Sequence record: OQ599310
DNA length: 64,000 nucleotides
Reading direction: 5' to 3' (one strand)
DNA from: Escherichia phage 55
Shown here: positions 7,873 through 59,548 of the stretch, piece by piece
Layout: the number at the start of each line of letters is the position of its first letter
Numbering within the stretch: position 1 is the first letter of the stretch
The notes under the pieces: generated by a model
Database searches by the model: none
What the model was told of the DNA's origin: nothing
The model's input: the letters and a program-made list of their open reading frames with translations, nothing else
Position numbers and translations under genes: made by a program

Positions 7873-8499
7873 ATGTACAAATATACGTTTACCGTACGTT
7901 TAGGCGATAAAGAAGTGAATTGTAGAGCCTTTACTTTAAAAGAATATTTAGGACTCATAGGTGCGCGGGCTACCGGTACTATTGAATCAGCAGTGAACAA
8001 TATTATCACTAATTGCTCTAATGCTAAAAACTTGACTAAACAAGAAGCCGAGTTATTGTTGGTAAATCTGTGGGCACATTCGTTAGGTGAAGTGAATCAA
8101 GAACACACCTGGAATTGTTCCTGTGGGCATTCATTTCAAGTCTATATGAATTTATTGCACACTCAATTGGATGAACAGGCCGACCCCTGGTATTCGTTTA
8201 GTGGTATTAAAATTAAGTTCCGACAACCTAAATTATTTGATGATAAAAATATCGCATTAATGATTGCTTCATGTATTGAGGCCGTTTTTGTCAATGGAGA
8301 GTCCATCCCTGTTGAAGATTTAACTGAAGCAGAAATAAACGACCTTTACGGCCTTATAACAGAAGATGACATGATCAATATTAAAAATCTTTTGGTATCG
8401 CCGTCAATTTATCTGGCAACCCCTATTAAATGTCCCAAATGTGGGGCGTCACACGTTCACACAATACGAGGCCTCAAAGAATTCTTTGAGTTATTATAA
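7873..8499 (+). CDS. 26: baseplate hub subunit gp26
   Basis: 208 aa; late promoter TATAAATA at 7847-7854; followed by gene 25. Confidence 0.85.
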   Translation: MYKYTFTVRLGDKEVNCRAFTLKEYLGLIGARATGTIESAVNNIITNCSNAKNLTKQEAELLLVNLWAHSLGEVNQEHTWNCSCGHSFQVYMNLLHTQLDEQADPWYSFSGIKIKFRQPKLFDDKNIALMIASCIEAVFVNGESIPVEDLTEAEINDLYGLITEDDMINIKNLLVSPSIYLATPIKCPKCGASHVHTIRGLKEFFELL

Positions 8500-8897
8500 T
8501 GTCTAATATCAATAAACTTTATTCAGATATCGACCCAGAAATGCGTATGGATTGGAACAAGGACGTTGCTCGTTCTGTAGGACTTCGTTCTATTAAAAAT
8601 AGTCTTCTTGGCATAGTGACAACTAGAAAAGGCTCACGCCCCTTCGACCCTGAATTTGGATGCGATTTGGTTGATGAACTTTTCGAGAACATGACACCGC
8701 TTACAGCTGATACGATTGAGCGTAATATCCAGGCAGCCGTCCGTAACTATGAGCCACGCATCGACAAACTTTCTGTAAGTGTAACGCCAGTATATGATGA
8801 CTATACGGTTATAGTAGAGATTAGATTTTCGGTCGTAGATAACCCTGATGATATCGAACAAATCAAACTTCAGTTAGCATCAAGCAATAGAGTGTAA
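8499..8897 (+). CDS. 25: baseplate wedge subunit gp25
   Basis: 132 aa; NINKLYSDIDPEM...IEQIKLQLASSNRV near-identical to remembered T4 gp25. Confidence 0.95.
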   Translation: MSNINKLYSDIDPEMRMDWNKDVARSVGLRSIKNSLLGIVTTRKGSRPFDPEFGCDLVDELFENMTPLTADTIERNIQAAVRNYEPRIDKLSVSVTPVYDDYTVIVEIRFSVVDNPDDIEQIKLQLASSNRV

Positions 8898-8922
8898 TGC
8901 TTCAAGGCAACCTATGTATAAT
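8896..8922 (+). promoter_or_regulatory. MotA-dependent middle promoter of uvsY
   Basis: MotA box AATGCTTCA, 12 nt, then TATAAT. Confidence 0.75.
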
Positions 8923-51719: not shown

Positions 51720-52006
51720 ACCGGCAAGACGTCGGACTGATGTTCCCTGAGTAAGGACTGGTCTTAATAAATCTTTATGATTCGTTAATATCCCCTTACA
51801 TCACAGCAGAAACGGCGCACAGAATTATCGATTCGAGGAAATATCTTTGCCGTAAGCCGAGTAGCGTTTTTGACGGAACGTTCGGATATGGTCGAGATAT
51901 GGCCTTTTAAAATATTGAGTAGCGTCAACTACTTAATAACCGGGTTCAAATCCCGGCGTTTCGTACAAACACTTACCTAGTAGGTGGAAACCCCGACAAG
52001 GTATAT
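51720..52006 (+). ncRNA. candidate small stable RNA region (T4 rnaC/rnaD-like?) with tRNA-like T-arm
   Basis: ~290 nt without ORF in the tRNA neighbourhood; hairpin GCCGG..CCGGC at 51710-51725; T-arm CCGGG/TTCAAAT/CCCGG at 51940-51956; no canonical cloverleaf. Confidence 0.3.
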
Positions 52007-54948: not shown

Positions 54949-55312
54949 GCCCTGGGCGTATGAATACAAGCGTAAATTAATCCCAAATGAAGTACTATTT
55001 GGCCCTATTTTAGCTTTAGCATTTTTAATCTTTATGATTATAGGAGCTGTTTTAGATTCTAGTGAAGTTATATCGTCTGATGCAGCATTTTCATTAATGT
55101 TCGTCGCACCACTTATTGTACCGTTTTTATTAATGCCTATTAATTGGGCAGGATATTGGCACCAAGGCCGTCATCACAGAGCCCGATTAAGAGAATGGAA
55201 AGTTCAGTGCGCAAAAGCCCAAGCTCAGTATGATGAAGCTGTTAAAAAGTATGAATATGAAGAAGCTATGGAATTCGTTAAGGAAATAAGATGCAAAAGC
55301 CTCAACTCTTAA
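54917..55312 (+). CDS. membrane protein, C-terminal FVKEIRCK motif (start uncertain: 54917 or 54938)
   Basis: Two hydrophobic helices; overlaps upstream gene end. Confidence 0.5.
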   Translation: MSKPTLYMPSKPWAYEYKRKLIPNEVLFGPILALAFLIFMIIGAVLDSSEVISSDAAFSLMFVAPLIVPFLLMPINWAGYWHQGRHHRARLREWKVQCAKAQAQYDEAVKKYEYEEAMEFVKEIRCKSLNS

Positions 55313-55650
55313 CCGTATGGCCTTCTCTTGGTGAGAACATTCTAATTTTTATTATGAGTATTGGCATGGGATTTGCCTTTGGATTAGTTGGATTTCTTAT
55401 TGACGGAGTTGTGTTAGGATTTATAGGGAACACCGGTGGATTCACAGACCAATGGCAGGACTTACGATATACTCAAGCCTTTGCATCCATCGCATCATTT
55501 TGTACTGTAGTCTATTTTTACTACGATTTTATAAACCACAACAAGAAAAATAAAAAGGTTTACGCTTCTCAAATGATTAGTTATAATGAACTCCTAGCTA
55601 GACGTGAAAATGAAACAATCGAAAACTTTATTAAGGAATGTAGAAAATGA
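55291..55650 (+). CDS. membrane protein ending ENFIKECRK
   Basis: 119 aa, hydrophobic core; overlaps upstream ORF by 22 nt. Confidence 0.6.
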   Translation: MQKPQLLTVWPSLGENILIFIMSIGMGFAFGLVGFLIDGVVLGFIGNTGGFTDQWQDLRYTQAFASIASFCTVVYFYYDFINHNKKNKKVYASQMISYNELLARRENETIENFIKECRK

Positions 55651-55952
55651 GTAAGATTATTGAAATTAAAGTACCAGAGTTTAATGATGCCAAATCCGCT
55701 TCAGATGCAATTTATAAACTTCTGAATCAAGCTGAACGTATCGAAGAAGAAGCAACAAAGATCGCAGACCAATATGCTGTATCATTTTCTGTAGGTGATT
55801 ATGGTAGCGGTCGTACTTATTATCCTAAGGGTGAAATCGTATCCCAGTGGATGAAAGATGAAATTGAAAATAATGGCGGCGATGTTAAGCGTGAAGGTAA
55901 TGGATACGTTATTACTGAAGGTGCTTGGGTTTCGTCTTCTGCGTTGTGCTAA
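55647..55952 (+). CDS. small protein paralog A (C-terminal GAWVSSSALC)
   Basis: 101 aa; first of three tandem paralogs. Confidence 0.65.
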   Translation: MSKIIEIKVPEFNDAKSASDAIYKLLNQAERIEEEATKIADQYAVSFSVGDYGSGRTYYPKGEIVSQWMKDEIENNGGDVKREGNGYVITEGAWVSSSALC

Positions 55953-55961
55953 GGAATCATT

Positions 55962-56234
55962 ATGTCTAAAGAACAAACCGAACTGGCTGAAGCTGTAGCA
56001 AAAATCTATGCAGCTATTGAGGCTGCCAAAGAAATTGCTGATAAACAAAACACAACATTCGACTTGTATCCAGCTTATGGTATGGGTGGAACCTATCATT
56101 CACCCGGACATCTTAAAGCCGATCTTGAACGTTGTACAAAAAACGGCCAGGCTGAATGGGCTGACGTTTACCAATACGACTACAACCTGAGCCTTGAAGA
56201 TGGCGGTTGGGTTGCATCTTCTCACACTTGCTAA
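55962..56234 (+). CDS. small protein paralog B (C-terminal GGWVASSHTC)
   Basis: 90 aa; shares KIY..IE.A.EIAD and GxGGTY motifs with paralog A. Confidence 0.65.
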   Translation: MSKEQTELAEAVAKIYAAIEAAKEIADKQNTTFDLYPAYGMGGTYHSPGHLKADLERCTKNGQAEWADVYQYDYNLSLEDGGWVASSHTC

Positions 56235-56243
56235 GGAAATCAT

Positions 56244-56441
56244 ATGTCTCGTGAATTAGATTGTGCTGTACGTACCGCAGTAGCTGCTCTAGAAAACCTG
56301 TTCCAGATTGCAACCGAAGAGCGTGAAGAAGTTACATTGTGGATTGAAGATAACGCAGGTCTGAATCTCCAGGACGCGATCTCATTATCCCACAATAGTA
56401 TCACTGTTCAAGGCTGGGTATCGTCTAGTTATTCTTGCTAA
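56244..56441 (+). CDS. small protein paralog C (C-terminal QGWVSSSYSC)
   Basis: 65 aa; same C-terminal motif and same TAAGGAA-ATG junction. Confidence 0.6.
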   Translation: MSRELDCAVRTAVAALENLFQIATEEREEVTLWIEDNAGLNLQDAISLSHNSITVQGWVSSSYSC

Positions 56442-56446
56442 AACAG

Positions 56447-56475
56447 TTTACAACAAGATAGGGCTATGTTATAGT
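56447..56475 (+). promoter_or_regulatory. early promoter with stem-loop
   Basis: TTTACA / TATAGT; palindrome GATAGGGCTA..TAGCCCTATC. Confidence 0.65.
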
Positions 56476-56503
56476 AGCCCTATCAAATTAAATGGAGTTC
56501 ACA

Positions 56504-56743
56504 ATGATTTATTACGAAAGTATCGGAACCAAAGTGGTTGGTAAAACCATTACTCGTGAAAAGTTTGCAAAGATATTCGATATGCGTTATAAAAAATCTG
56601 AACACAAAGGCATCCGATTCGAAGATGCGCACTGTACAATTTGCCCTTATAATGAAGACATAAACGGTACAATCGTTCCATTGGTAGAGGCTTCACATGA
56701 TGACCTCTGGGATGAATATAATATCGCATGTCGTGAAATTTAA
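56504..56743 (+). CDS. hypothetical protein
   Basis: 79 aa; RBS GGAG; early promoter 56447-56475. Confidence 0.6.
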   Translation: MIYYESIGTKVVGKTITREKFAKIFDMRYKKSEHKGIRFEDAHCTICPYNEDINGTIVPLVEASHDDLWDEYNIACREI

Positions 56744-56767
56744 GTGAATTAATCCGAGGAAAATATT

Positions 56768-57724
56768 ATGATGTTAGTTATTGGTTCTCGTGCACTTCAC
56801 TATCATGGTCTTATTGATTCTAGCGCTATCAAAAATAGCGATTGGGACTTTATTGCGGACCAAGGTTCTTGGAATGCATTCAAAAATCAAATGATGGGTG
56901 TATATGTCCACCAAGATAACCCTGATGTCCAAGTTTTCAAATGCTTCCATAATGGACGCGAAACTCATTTTGAAGCATACATCGTTCCGGCTATCACTAA
57001 CGTTCGCGAACTAGTCGGTGAACTCACTCCTGAAGATTTCACGTCTTCTTATGACCTTTTAAAATACGCCAAGAAAAATTTGACTAAAGACCGTTTGAAC
57101 GGGTTTTACTGGGCAACTCCTGAGATATGTCTTGCAATTAAGATGTCTCATCGTTTCAAGAAAAATAATCCATTCTTTTTAAAGACTATGAACCATATTC
57201 AGTATCTTCGTGGTAAAGGTGTTACACTGAACGATGAACTTACTGAAATTATGCTGAAACGCCAGAAAGAAACCTTGAACTATGCTCACCCAGTTCTTGA
57301 CACTTCTAAAAGTGCGTTCTTTAAAGATGACATCTATACATATGACCATGATACTATTCATGAAGCCATTGCACTAACAGACCGTCCAGCGTATACATTT
57401 TATATGAAAGATGGTTCTGAAGTCATGACCTCACGCGAGAAGTTCGAATCATTACCAGAAATGGTCAAATTGGCCGGCGTATACGAAGAATCATGTGTAC
57501 TAGCGTTAGAACGTTCTCAGATTCCTAATAACTTTGAAATCCATCCACGTGATAGTTTTATGATGGCCCTTGAAAAGGTCTGTACATCAATCACATCAGG
57601 ATGGTTCCGTGAGTTCGCTTGGGAAAATTATAGCAAAGTAGTAAGTATGTACCAAAGCTTAGGACACGACGATTACGTCAAGCGTTTCAAACAAAACTTT
57701 CATATGGTAAAACCTTTCAAATAA
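56768..57724 (+). CDS. hypothetical 318-aa protein, possible nucleotidyltransferase-like N-terminus
   Basis: Largest ORF of the accessory region; N-terminal IGSRAL...SDWDFIAD pattern. Confidence 0.65.
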   Translation: MMLVIGSRALHYHGLIDSSAIKNSDWDFIADQGSWNAFKNQMMGVYVHQDNPDVQVFKCFHNGRETHFEAYIVPAITNVRELVGELTPEDFTSSYDLLKYAKKNLTKDRLNGFYWATPEICLAIKMSHRFKKNNPFFLKTMNHIQYLRGKGVTLNDELTEIMLKRQKETLNYAHPVLDTSKSAFFKDDIYTYDHDTIHEAIALTDRPAYTFYMKDGSEVMTSREKFESLPEMVKLAGVYEESCVLALERSQIPNNFEIHPRDSFMMALEKVCTSITSGWFREFAWENYSKVVSMYQSLGHDDYVKRFKQNFHMVKPFK

Positions 57725-57737
57725 TTTCACAAAACAG

Positions 57738-57766
57738 TTTACAAGGTCTGTAGTTGTTGATACTAT
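57738..57766 (+). promoter_or_regulatory. early promoter with stem-loop
   Basis: TTTACA, 17 nt, TACTAT; GGTCT..AGACC. Confidence 0.6.
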
Positions 57767-57804
57767 AGACCTATCAAAACAAATGAGTGAATGGAGATAT
57801 AAAA

Positions 57805-58005
57805 ATGACTACTTTGAATAAACGTTTCGGTAAAGCTAAACCTGGTTGTGCAGCAGAACGTCGTTATGTTTTCGCTCAGTTAGAAGATGTAGAGTATCAG
57901 ATTAATCAAGTTCACATTACTGGTATCGAGCCTATGTGTGGCCTTGAAGCTCTTCGTGAAGTTCGTGATGGGTATCGTCGTGTCATCGAAGAAATGTCAA
58001 AATAA
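57805..58005 (+). CDS. hypothetical protein
   Basis: 66 aa; RBS GGAG; early promoter 57738-57766. Confidence 0.55.
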   Translation: MTTLNKRFGKAKPGCAAERRYVFAQLEDVEYQINQVHITGIEPMCGLEALREVRDGYRRVIEEMSK

Positions 58006-58006
58006 G

Positions 58007-58035
58007 TGTACAAACTGATAGGACTATGTTATAGT
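58007..58035 (+). promoter_or_regulatory. early promoter with stem-loop (third GATAGGACTA copy)
   Basis: TGTACA / TATAGT. Confidence 0.6.
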
Positions 58036-58063
58036 AGTCCTATTAAAACATGAGGAGAATATT

Positions 58064-58369
58064 ATGAAATTAGGCGAAACCAACCGAATCGGTCTTTTAA
58101 CAATATTTGTATCACTTTTTTACGCAGCTCTTTCTGTTGCAGTATTACAAAAGGCTTACAGTATGGATGGTGTTCCTGGTTTTGTATTCTTATCGCCGTT
58201 TTTGCTATTCGTTGGAGCATTGTTATTATATGCCACGACTAGTTTCGACCATAACGTCTGGGTCAATTATAAATGTAAATTGTCTGAAGAAGAACACGCA
58301 GAAGCTCGTAAAAAAGCTATTGAATCTACCAATCTAGAAAATTTCATTAAAGAATGTCGAGGAAAATAA
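58064..58369 (+). CDS. membrane protein ending ENFIKECRGK
   Basis: 101 aa, two hydrophobic helices; early promoter 58007-58035. Confidence 0.65.
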   Translation: MKLGETNRIGLLTIFVSLFYAALSVAVLQKAYSMDGVPGFVFLSPFLLFVGALLLYATTSFDHNVWVNYKCKLSEEEHAEARKKAIESTNLENFIKECRGK

Positions 58370-58370
58370 T

Positions 58371-59057
58371 ATGAATAGTTCTAAAGTGTTTAATAGTCAA
58401 GCTCGTGCAGTAGGTGGTTTTGCCGGCGGTATTTCTAATGATAAAATCAAGAACGAGCCTATGTTCTTCAACTGTAGTTTAGAATTTGCTTATAATAACG
58501 GCGGTCCTATTACTCGCAGCTTCATCATGAACTTGCCGGATGATTGGAACACCGACCAGGTTGTATTTGATTCACGAGTCCATATGCTGATGCCTGGTTG
58601 GTATCCTGCTATTCCTGGTTATCACCATGATGACGTACCACGCCCGGATATTCCGGTTGGTCAACATTTTATTACTGCAGGACAACCTGACTATGACAAT
58701 CCTCGCTATTTGTCTGAACATATTCTTGGTCTTGTTAACGCTGATGTGTGTCCTACTCATTTTGCAACAGGAACTGCAGAGTTCAGTCAGATTCCTGATG
58801 GCGAACTTATCTATCGCCAGTGGCACAAAGAAGTCCTCGAAAAAATTGAAAAAGGTGAACTAGAGAAATGGGAAGCTCCGGACCGTACTCTTCTTCAGTT
58901 TGATTGGCAAACATGGCACACTGGTTCTCGTGCAATTAGTAATGGATGGCGTTGGTTCGGACGTGTATCTCGTAATACAGACCGAGTTAAAAAGATTACC
59001 AATGAAATTCGTGTCAACGCTCAAGTTTATCTAGAATTCCCTATGGAAGGCTGGTAA
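58371..59057 (+). CDS. hypothetical 228-aa protein
   Basis: His/Trp-rich (GYHHDD, TWHTG); no confident family assignment. Confidence 0.6.
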   Translation: MNSSKVFNSQARAVGGFAGGISNDKIKNEPMFFNCSLEFAYNNGGPITRSFIMNLPDDWNTDQVVFDSRVHMLMPGWYPAIPGYHHDDVPRPDIPVGQHFITAGQPDYDNPRYLSEHILGLVNADVCPTHFATGTAEFSQIPDGELIYRQWHKEVLEKIEKGELEKWEAPDRTLLQFDWQTWHTGSRAISNGWRWFGRVSRNTDRVKKITNEIRVNAQVYLEFPMEGW

Positions 59058-59548
59058 TGATTAACAAAACATATTGGTCTAATATTGACGACGGCAATGA
59101 AGGTATTTCGTACTATTCAGTGGATTGGACAGAATGTCCATCCTACTTAGTGAAACGTATTTGCCAAGAATTTAAAATCGACCAGCCAGCAGGTATTATC
59201 GTGAACAGATACATTAACGGATATCAACCTATCGATGAAGTAATACGAACAACTCAAGCTGATCTTGAAAAGTTTTTCAATAAGTGCCAATGGATAACAG
59301 GATGGATTATATTTGTACCGTCGGTATGGTTTTTTAGTACTAAGGTGAGTTCTTTCGGTTTTGTTGATATTATTGCTATCTTATTAGCATCTATTATCGT
59401 AAGTATAATTGGTGGTATAATTGGTGGAGGTACTATAGGCATCATTATTAATCTTGTTAAAAGTAGTTTACAGGAACGTAAAGACAAGATAAAGGCCAAG
59501 AATAACGAAGTTGAACGTTTTATTACCGAATGCAGGAATTTGAGATGA
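59057..59548 (+). CDS. membrane protein ending ERFITECRNLR
   Basis: 163 aa; soluble N-domain, Gly/Ile-rich TM segment. Confidence 0.65.
   Translation: MINKTYWSNIDDGNEGISYYSVDWTECPSYLVKRICQEFKIDQPAGIIVNRYINGYQPIDEVIRTTQADLEKFFNKCQWITGWIIFVPSVWFFSTKVSSFGFVDIIAILLASIIVSIIGGIIGGGTIGIIINLVKSSLQERKDKIKAKNNEVERFITECRNLR

Follow-up and report, generated by a model that had tools for sequence, protein, structure and literature searches.

Several nucleotidyltransferases (NTases) of the Pol-beta superfamily offer points of comparison for the gene studied here. In MntA-HepT, a Pol-beta NTase modifies an adjacently encoded protein, which is nucleotidylylated at a conserved residue (PMC7641770). The toxin MenT3 auto-phosphorylates at its active-site serine (PMC11375011, PMC10435456), and MenT1 is blocked by MenA1, a small protein encoded upstream of it (PMC10435456). 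In phages, a 2022 preprint described a 'large family of phage NTases' making cyclic dinucleotides against TIR-STING, the tested enzyme coming from Av-05, a relative of the phage analysed here (bioRxiv 10.1101/2022.06.09.495361).

What kind of enzyme, then, is the 318-aa protein of Escherichia phage 55? It is encoded in a 64,000-nucleotide stretch of record OQ599310, referred to below as the window, which shares 96-97.5% identity with T-even phages of the Mosigvirus type (RB69/JS09/APCEc01-like); the orthologs of the gene are labelled 'hypothetical protein' in almost all records. The original prediction, made from the DNA letters, had seen an N-terminal G-S ... D-x-D arrangement with a spacing longer than in the classic Pol-beta motif. 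Both observations hold, the residues being G6-S7 and D25-W-D27 with 17 residues between them. G6, S7, D25, D27 and E69 are invariant in 69/69 homologs, at identities down to about 46%, and the first four are still invariant (9/9) with the 29%-identity homologs of Gordonia, Streptomyces and Vibrio phages, whose spacing of 13-15 residues is near-classic. As the motif is invariant across the 69 homologs and again at 29% identity, it is, on the sequence evidence, no chance match. In the predicted model, the h-G-[GS] feature (V-I-G6-S7) falls where strand 2-5 gives way to helix 6-12, the [DE]-h-[DE]-h feature (D25-W-D27-F) opens strand 26-31, and the third carboxylate (F-E69-A), invariant in the 69 long forms, lies on strand 64-73; in the short forms an acidic residue stands in surroundings similar to those of E69, with an ambiguous alignment at that point. 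The checks that had been named for the prediction, conservation of the acidic residues and a predicted NTase fold, thus both speak for it: D25, D27 and E69 do not vary, and an alpha/beta NTase fold is predicted confidently. With the Pol-beta interpretation supported, we regard an NTase fold with an intact catalytic triad as very likely. Judged from sequence and model, the product of the ORF is very probably a genuine nucleotide-transferring enzyme from a family confined to phages, and we infer that it is catalytically active.

Full-length profile matches of the protein are to DUF7277 (E 1e-27), DUF7275 (E 3e-79) and PHROG 2141 (E 2e-150). PHROG 2141 represents the long form and PHROG 6944 the short form of the enzyme; all four entries come without a function, and the literature searched does not mention them. 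Among Pol-beta NTases, the family represents a variant that is new and specific to phages. That the helical DUF7275 lobe is new and highly conserved is strongly supported; its K125 is invariant and falls within the first helix past the head in the predicted model, and the short-form relatives retain both catalytic and lobe motifs. One invariant lobe segment, K-V-C-T-S-I-T-S-G-W (aa 270-279), resembles the reversed C-terminus, G-W-x-S-S-S-x-x-C, of the partner proteins described below, a likeness that may be coincidence.

We propose that the enzyme belongs to the same structural subgroup as the MenT/AbiEii toxins, ANT(2'') and Lnu. In a comparison with MenT1 (8an4), MenT3/TglT (6j7n) and MenT4 (6y56), the motif III lysine of MenT may correspond to K125, and candidates for its motif IV aspartate are D193/D195 or E168; the Lys-Asp spacing is at least 43 residues here, whereas it is 15-22 in MenT. 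The position of the phosphorylated S78 of MenT3 and of T39 of MenT1 is taken by N23, which is variable, as is the adjacent position. PF08843 (DUF1814) matches neither the window protein nor any of the 69 members at E<=10, and a profile search of the PDB returned no MenT chain. MenT has a cognate antitoxin gene upstream; the conserved small partner upstream of our NTase, a candidate for such a role, is of a new family that nothing in Pfam or the PDB matches. ANT(2'')-Ia (AadB, 4xje) and LnuA (4wh5) have no sequence similarity to our NTase; they measure only about 160-175 aa and contain nothing like DUF7275, and the genomic context of the NTase gives no pointer to an antibiotic substrate.

With MntA-HepT (MNT/HEPN, type VII toxin-antitoxin) the analogy is confined to mechanism. 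MntA belongs to the minimal NTases of the NTP_transf_2 type, a family that our protein does not match; MNT-type profiles gave a single chance-level match among the 69 members (Polbeta, E 0.098, 1/69). The acceptor in MntA-HepT is a tyrosine of the HEPN RNase, whereas the candidate here is a Ser-Ser tail, and an MNT enzyme with a HEPN partner was rejected on finding neither HEPN nor another Pfam domain in the neighbouring proteins. An HD-domain phosphohydrolase, considered for the His/Asp-rich C-terminal lobe, was likewise rejected, with neither the HD fold nor the H...HD...D motif found.

The NTases of T4 NrdC.11 and the RlaP family resemble our protein in being Pol-beta enzymes of early accessory regions of T-even-type phages with an S-D-W-D or D-x-D motif, and the Av-05 NTase is a 353-aa NrdC.11 homolog. 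T4 NrdC.11 matches Pfam RlaP and carries the motif GS-x-AY[GAN]T-x4-SDxD. Our protein does not belong to this family: a regex found no such motif, there is no RlaP match, and hhalign against T4 NrdC.11 gave a probability of 0.09%. The two types occur together in the genome of Aeromonas phage CC2 and also on a metagenomic phage contig, L109. On this contig, the DUF7275 NTase is followed by a Metallophos gene and, 0.9 kb downstream of the NTase, by an RlaP/NrdC.11-family NTase (7925-8908), so that two unrelated Pol-beta NTases share one early cluster.

Within the accessory region (about 52-61 kb of the window), the NTase gene is the longest ORF, as originally claimed, with a 228-aa ORF as runner-up. 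It had also not been recognised as a T4 protein, and indeed no homolog was found in the 36 kb of T4 between 40 and 76 kb, the e.3/e.2 junction included. Since e.3 abuts e.2 in T4, the ORF is part of an insert relative to T4 (Table 1), which holds three genes for small proteins with a common C-terminal motif (tail proteins, see below), an 83-aa ORF, the NTase and three more ORFs without known function, the largest of which belongs to a family found in only 2 genome groups. The 83-aa ORF contains H-C-T-I-C and a later His and Cys, from which its product is possibly a small metal-binding protein; it sits beside the NTase in Mosigvirus-type phages only, other lineages lacking it there. The assignment to an early operon fits an early-promoter-like site upstream of the 83-aa ORF, a pattern match of a kind not found above shuffles in this region, and the NTase is probably in an early-gene position. 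In phage SA79RD, a close relative, the positions equivalent to the inverted repeat upstream and to the imperfect hairpin downstream of the NTase are annotated as rho-independent terminators (L003 5960-5993 and 7249-7287, respectively). At 51873-51966 of the window ARAGORN calls a 94-nt tRNA-Lys(ttt), for which the Rfam tRNA model gave no match at E<=0.1 while detecting the adjacent tRNA-Met and tRNA-Arg; SA79RD is annotated with only the Met and Arg tRNAs and with a terminator near the tRNA-Lys position, and the call is probably spurious.

Table 1. Positions in the window of the NTase gene, its coding motifs and its surroundings
Feature	Position	Strand	Remarks
Insert relative to T4, ~3.4 kb	55651..59056	+	BLASTP of T4 e.2-e.6, nudE and e onto the window
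e.3 homolog (insert border)	55291-55650
e.2 homolog (insert border)	59057-59548
Tail protein A, 101 aa, acidic	55647..55952	+	PHROG 899, E 1e-22; family profile match
Tail protein B, 90 aa	55962..56234	+	PHROG 899, E 4e-19; family profile match
Tail protein C, 65 aa, divergent paralog	56244..56441	+	PHROG 4882; tail by regex
Sigma-70 / T4 early-promoter-like site, TTTACA-N17-TATAGT with upstream TG	56447..56475	+	consensus scan, 10/12 matches
10-bp inverted repeat GATAGGGCTA...TAGCCCTATC	56457..56484	.	between tail-protein genes and 83-aa ORF
83-aa ORF	56492..56743	+	PHROG 3723, function unknown; between tail genes and NTase
Shine-Dalgarno GAGGA	56756..56760	+	7 nt 5' of NTase ATG; sequence reading
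NTase gene, 318 aa, ATG start	56768..57724	+	RB69ORF134c ortholog; DUF7277 + DUF7275; PHROG 2141
Catalytic head, aa 1-105	56768..57082	+	DUF7277; minimal Pol-beta NTase alpha/beta core
G6-S7 codons	56783-56788	+
D25-W-D27 codons	56840-56848	+
E69 codon	56972-56974	+
C-terminal all-alpha lobe, aa 110-318	57095..57721	+	DUF7275
Lobe motif K125-M-S-H-R129	57140-57154	+
Lobe motif D193-H-D-x-x-H198	57344-57361	+
Lobe motif E240-E241	57485-57490	+
Lobe motif E248-R249	57509-57514	+
Lobe motif K270-V-C-T-S-I-T-S-G-W279	57575-57604	+
Imperfect hairpin GGTCTGTAG...CTATAGACC	57745..57771	+	directly 3' of NTase stop; sequence
66-aa ORF in insert	57805-58005		no Pfam match above threshold
101-aa ORF in insert	58064-58369		predicted membrane-like N-terminus; no Pfam match above threshold
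228-aa ORF in insert	58371-59057		no Pfam match above threshold

The family is essentially restricted to phages. A tblastn search found it in 733 phage records, comprising T4-like phages of enterobacteria, Aeromonas and Acinetobacter, Phapecoctavirus, and Pseudomonas, Stenotrophomonas, jumbo, Gordonia, Streptomyces and Vibrio phages. Among 1.84 billion representative proteins a profile search collected 1,578 NTase clusters, the best 150 of which are all stand-alone proteins of about 300 aa. A scan of bacteria and archaea with one genome for each of 185,579 species, pattern-based so that divergent members would escape it, yielded only 5 loci, all on contigs of metagenome-assembled genomes (MAGs; four of 73-167 kb and one 2.3-kb fragment) and none in isolate genomes, and a plasmid collection held 3 partial matches. 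One record of the Acinetobacter-phage homologs (L001 3662-4615, PQ885451.1; L002, NC_049492.1) names the protein 'DefenseFinder protein' and another 'putative nucleotidyltransferase'; PADLOC models gave no match.

Which proteins accompany the enzyme? A first BLAST comparison of NTase neighbours across lineages revealed no family in common. An ending of the form ...G-x-W-[VI]-[SA]-S-S-x-x-C is shared, however, by an ORF that precedes the phAPEC8 homolog and by three tandem ORFs upstream of the NTase in the window. In a survey of 86 loci (80 viral-contig loci plus others) from 19 genome groups, which were defined heuristically from common gene content, all ORFs within +/-10 kb of the NTase were clustered and the families ranked by group count. 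The tail-protein family came first with 10/19 groups, the next-best families reaching at most 4/19, and of its clustered members 83/84 carry the tail motif at the C-terminus. A profile HMM detected the partner in 16/19 groups, plus the Acinetobacter, phAPEC8, PN09 and Ps15 loci; 3/19 long-form groups have no tail proteins within 10 kb, and the short-form relatives of Gordonia, Streptomyces and Vibrio phages have none within 2.5 kb.

The tail proteins are acidic (median pI 4.4) and short (median 89 aa). They begin with a helix (...EA..IAD..G..F), in most cases possess a YG(M)GGTYYP motif, and continue through an acidic variable linker of 0-35 residues to an eight-residue C-terminal tail, W-x-[SAP]-S-S-x-x-C. 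Over 113 distinct tails, conservation is 57% for G(-9), 84% for W(-7), 80% for S/A/P(-5), 89% for S(-4), 84% for S(-3) and 98% for the C-terminal Cys; the upstream partner in L002 ends in ...SSESY and lacks this cysteine. In the window, protein A has the N-terminal helix, a GDYGSGRTYYP motif and the end ...GAWVSSSALC, and protein B, the first sequence of our tail-family alignment A6, has PAYGMGGTYH and ...GGWVASSHTC. Protein C is reduced to a helix and the tail ...QGWVSSSYSC, without the YGMGG motif, and is not matched by the family profile (fam59) at E<=1e-3. Both PHROGs of the family, 899 and 4882, are of unknown function, and all named database entries read 'hypothetical'. No Pfam domain and no fusions were found, and the solved relatives are generic coiled-coil matches only. 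T4 Tk.1 (62 aa; L154 347-535) matches the body of the tail profile, LSFEISSEYGDAETYY, with E 7e-5; it does not have W-x-S-S-x-x-C and may be a tail-less relative.

The nearest tail gene lies upstream of the NTase on the same strand in 75/75 paired loci, at a median gap of 603 bp (maximum 1.6 kb), the genes abutting or overlapping in several lineages. Most loci have 1-3 tail-gene copies and a few have 5-6; in Ps15, exceptionally, the copies lie just downstream of the NTase, and in the window a promoter/terminator-like element and the unrelated 83-aa ORF intervene. The pairing is also reciprocal: all three tail proteins taken from an independent search of proteins are followed by a DUF7275 gene at a distance of 0.8-1.5 kb, and 36/39 viral-contig loci seeded by the tail family contain the NTase, the misses being two contig ends and one genuine case (L141, no NTase within 6 kb). 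Tail genes are paired with the NTase in 4/5 MAG loci, and the syntenic e.3/e.2 site of T4 has neither. Co-orientation alone carries little weight, as phage early genes are mostly co-directional; more weight attaches to the constant placement upstream, to the co-occurrence seen from both sides and to the lack of any other common neighbour. It is therefore likely, in our judgement, that the NTase is functionally coupled to the tail proteins, and the two would interact or act together. The pairing appears to be undescribed so far and points to an undescribed two-part phage system.

Other genes were noted near the NTase in a few lineages. In the group of ~360-kb jumbo phages and in one further lineage, the NTase is followed at 0.15-1.6 kb by a Metallophos (calcineurin-like) phosphoesterase gene; in the Phapecoctavirus-like group the distance is 2.5-8 kb, and the gene is present in 3/19 groups altogether (L014 7195-7974, L105 7624-8403, L109 7216-7932, L020 5948-6682). 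This phosphoesterase could reverse a phospho- or nucleotidyl-modification. The tRNA-repair pair of T4-type RNA ligase 1 (Rnl1) and polynucleotide kinase-phosphatase (Pnkp) is found 3.6-6 kb upstream in jumbo phages, and Rnl1 without Pnkp at the same distance in Aeromonas phages of ~230 kb, that is, in 2/19 groups and no others (L014 1-2367, L018 5025-6203, L023 3286-6056). Also tRNA genes occur nearby in several lineages, an observation that has no control. These links to tRNA-repair genes, tRNA genes and Metallophos are too weak to build on. Genes for nicotinamide phosphoribosyltransferase (Vibrio K460, Stenotrophomonas Ps15) and for a SIR2-family protein (Phapecoctavirus-type phages) likewise lie near the NTase of these unrelated phages (L005 8-1663, L009 1-675, L007 7200-8015, L020 13519-14316); such NAD-related genes are absent from the enriched neighbour families of the 19-group survey. 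After the short-form NTases of Gordonia Aphelion and Streptomyces Wakanda, overlapping ORFs of 96-99 aa (L004 3100-3390, L006 3094-3393) share 29% identity over 90 aa (E 0.08), and may encode a different partner of the short-form enzymes.

What could the two components do together? The best overall explanation, which we favour tentatively, is an active NTase that modifies a tail serine within a two-gene module. The NTase and the small acidic proteins encoded upstream would be expressed early. The metal-binding carboxylates would be carried by the small alpha/beta head, with the helical C-terminal lobe completing the active site; Mg2+-NTP would be bound by G6-S7, D25/D27 and E69, while the acceptor would sit in the highly conserved DUF7275 lobe. 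A serine hydroxyl of the W-x-[SAP]-S-S-x-x-C-COOH tail would then receive an NMP, or perhaps a phosphate, from the enzyme, and the small proteins would thereby be switched or armed in infection. The tail suggests itself as recognition and acceptor site because conservation centres on this short, hydroxyl-rich terminal tag of otherwise divergent paralogs, and the tail serine is a possible acceptor, a proposal made with some caution. Speaking against a protein acceptor, the enzymes nearest in structure use tRNA 3' ends or small molecules. Also against this explanation are the absence of tail proteins near the short forms and in 3/19 long-form groups, from which the core chemistry may not need them, and the elements that separate tail genes and NTase in the window. 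More doubtful still is the specific version, a hitherto unrecognised post-translational modification system of phages, in which a MenT-like NTase recognises the W-x-S-S-x-x-C tail and nucleotidylylates its serine or, in a variant, activates the serine for further chemistry with the terminal cysteine, yielding early host-takeover or anti-defence effectors.

Alternatively, as the main rival, the enzyme could be a MenT-like RNA NTase that adds nucleotides to RNA 3' ends, such as the CCA of tRNA, and so manipulates or repairs the translation apparatus, with the small proteins inhibiting or timing it. Like MenA1 on MenT1, the acidic proteins would plug the active site, using their conserved tail. 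Such an activity would agree with the short forms, which do without tail proteins. We nevertheless consider it unlikely. The family has no sequence match to DUF1814/AbiEii, and the Ser/Thr that MenT has two residues before the first Asp is not conserved. The 1-3 partner paralogs, sometimes behind other genes or a terminator, are unlike a 1:1 toxin-antitoxin pair, and the link to Rnl1/Pnkp, confined to 2/19 groups, is near chance. Moreover, the NTase family is mildly acidic overall (median pI 6.1), and an indiscriminate tRNA poison offers no obvious gain to a lytic phage.

Less probable again is an NTase for small molecules or oligonucleotides, whose substrate would be a metabolite or an antibiotic-like compound, as for ANT(2'') and Lnu, or whose product would be a linear or cyclic oligonucleotide serving as an anti-defence decoy, as reported of the NrdC.11 phage NTases; in this case the role of the tail proteins would be to bind the product, to carry it or to sequester it. 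Finally, NTase and tail genes might be independent early accessory genes travelling in one mobile cassette, as befits hyperplastic early regions swapped as blocks, the joint location in one insert of the window and the solitary tail locus L141, but this is very improbable given that the pairing persists in 16/19 groups amid wholly different other neighbours, with order and strand fixed and genes overlapping in several lineages, a persistence that in mosaic phage DNA normally means functional linkage.

Although T-even-type, Phapecoctavirus, Otagovirus, Acinetobacter, Aeromonas and jumbo phages are the subject of wide study and serve in therapy, most of their early accessory genes are without known function. 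Our analysis turns two 'hypothetical protein' families into one defined, testable module, which joins an enzyme with a clear catalytic triad to small proteins with a hydroxyl- and thiol-bearing C-terminal tag. If the small proteins inhibit the enzyme, lytic phages would have in this module their equivalent of the MenT toxin-antitoxin systems. If instead the tail is modified, phages would turn out to modify proteins in a novel way, possibly by a novel chemistry of protein tagging, no protein-NMPylation module having so far, to our knowledge, been described from T-even-type or jumbo phages.
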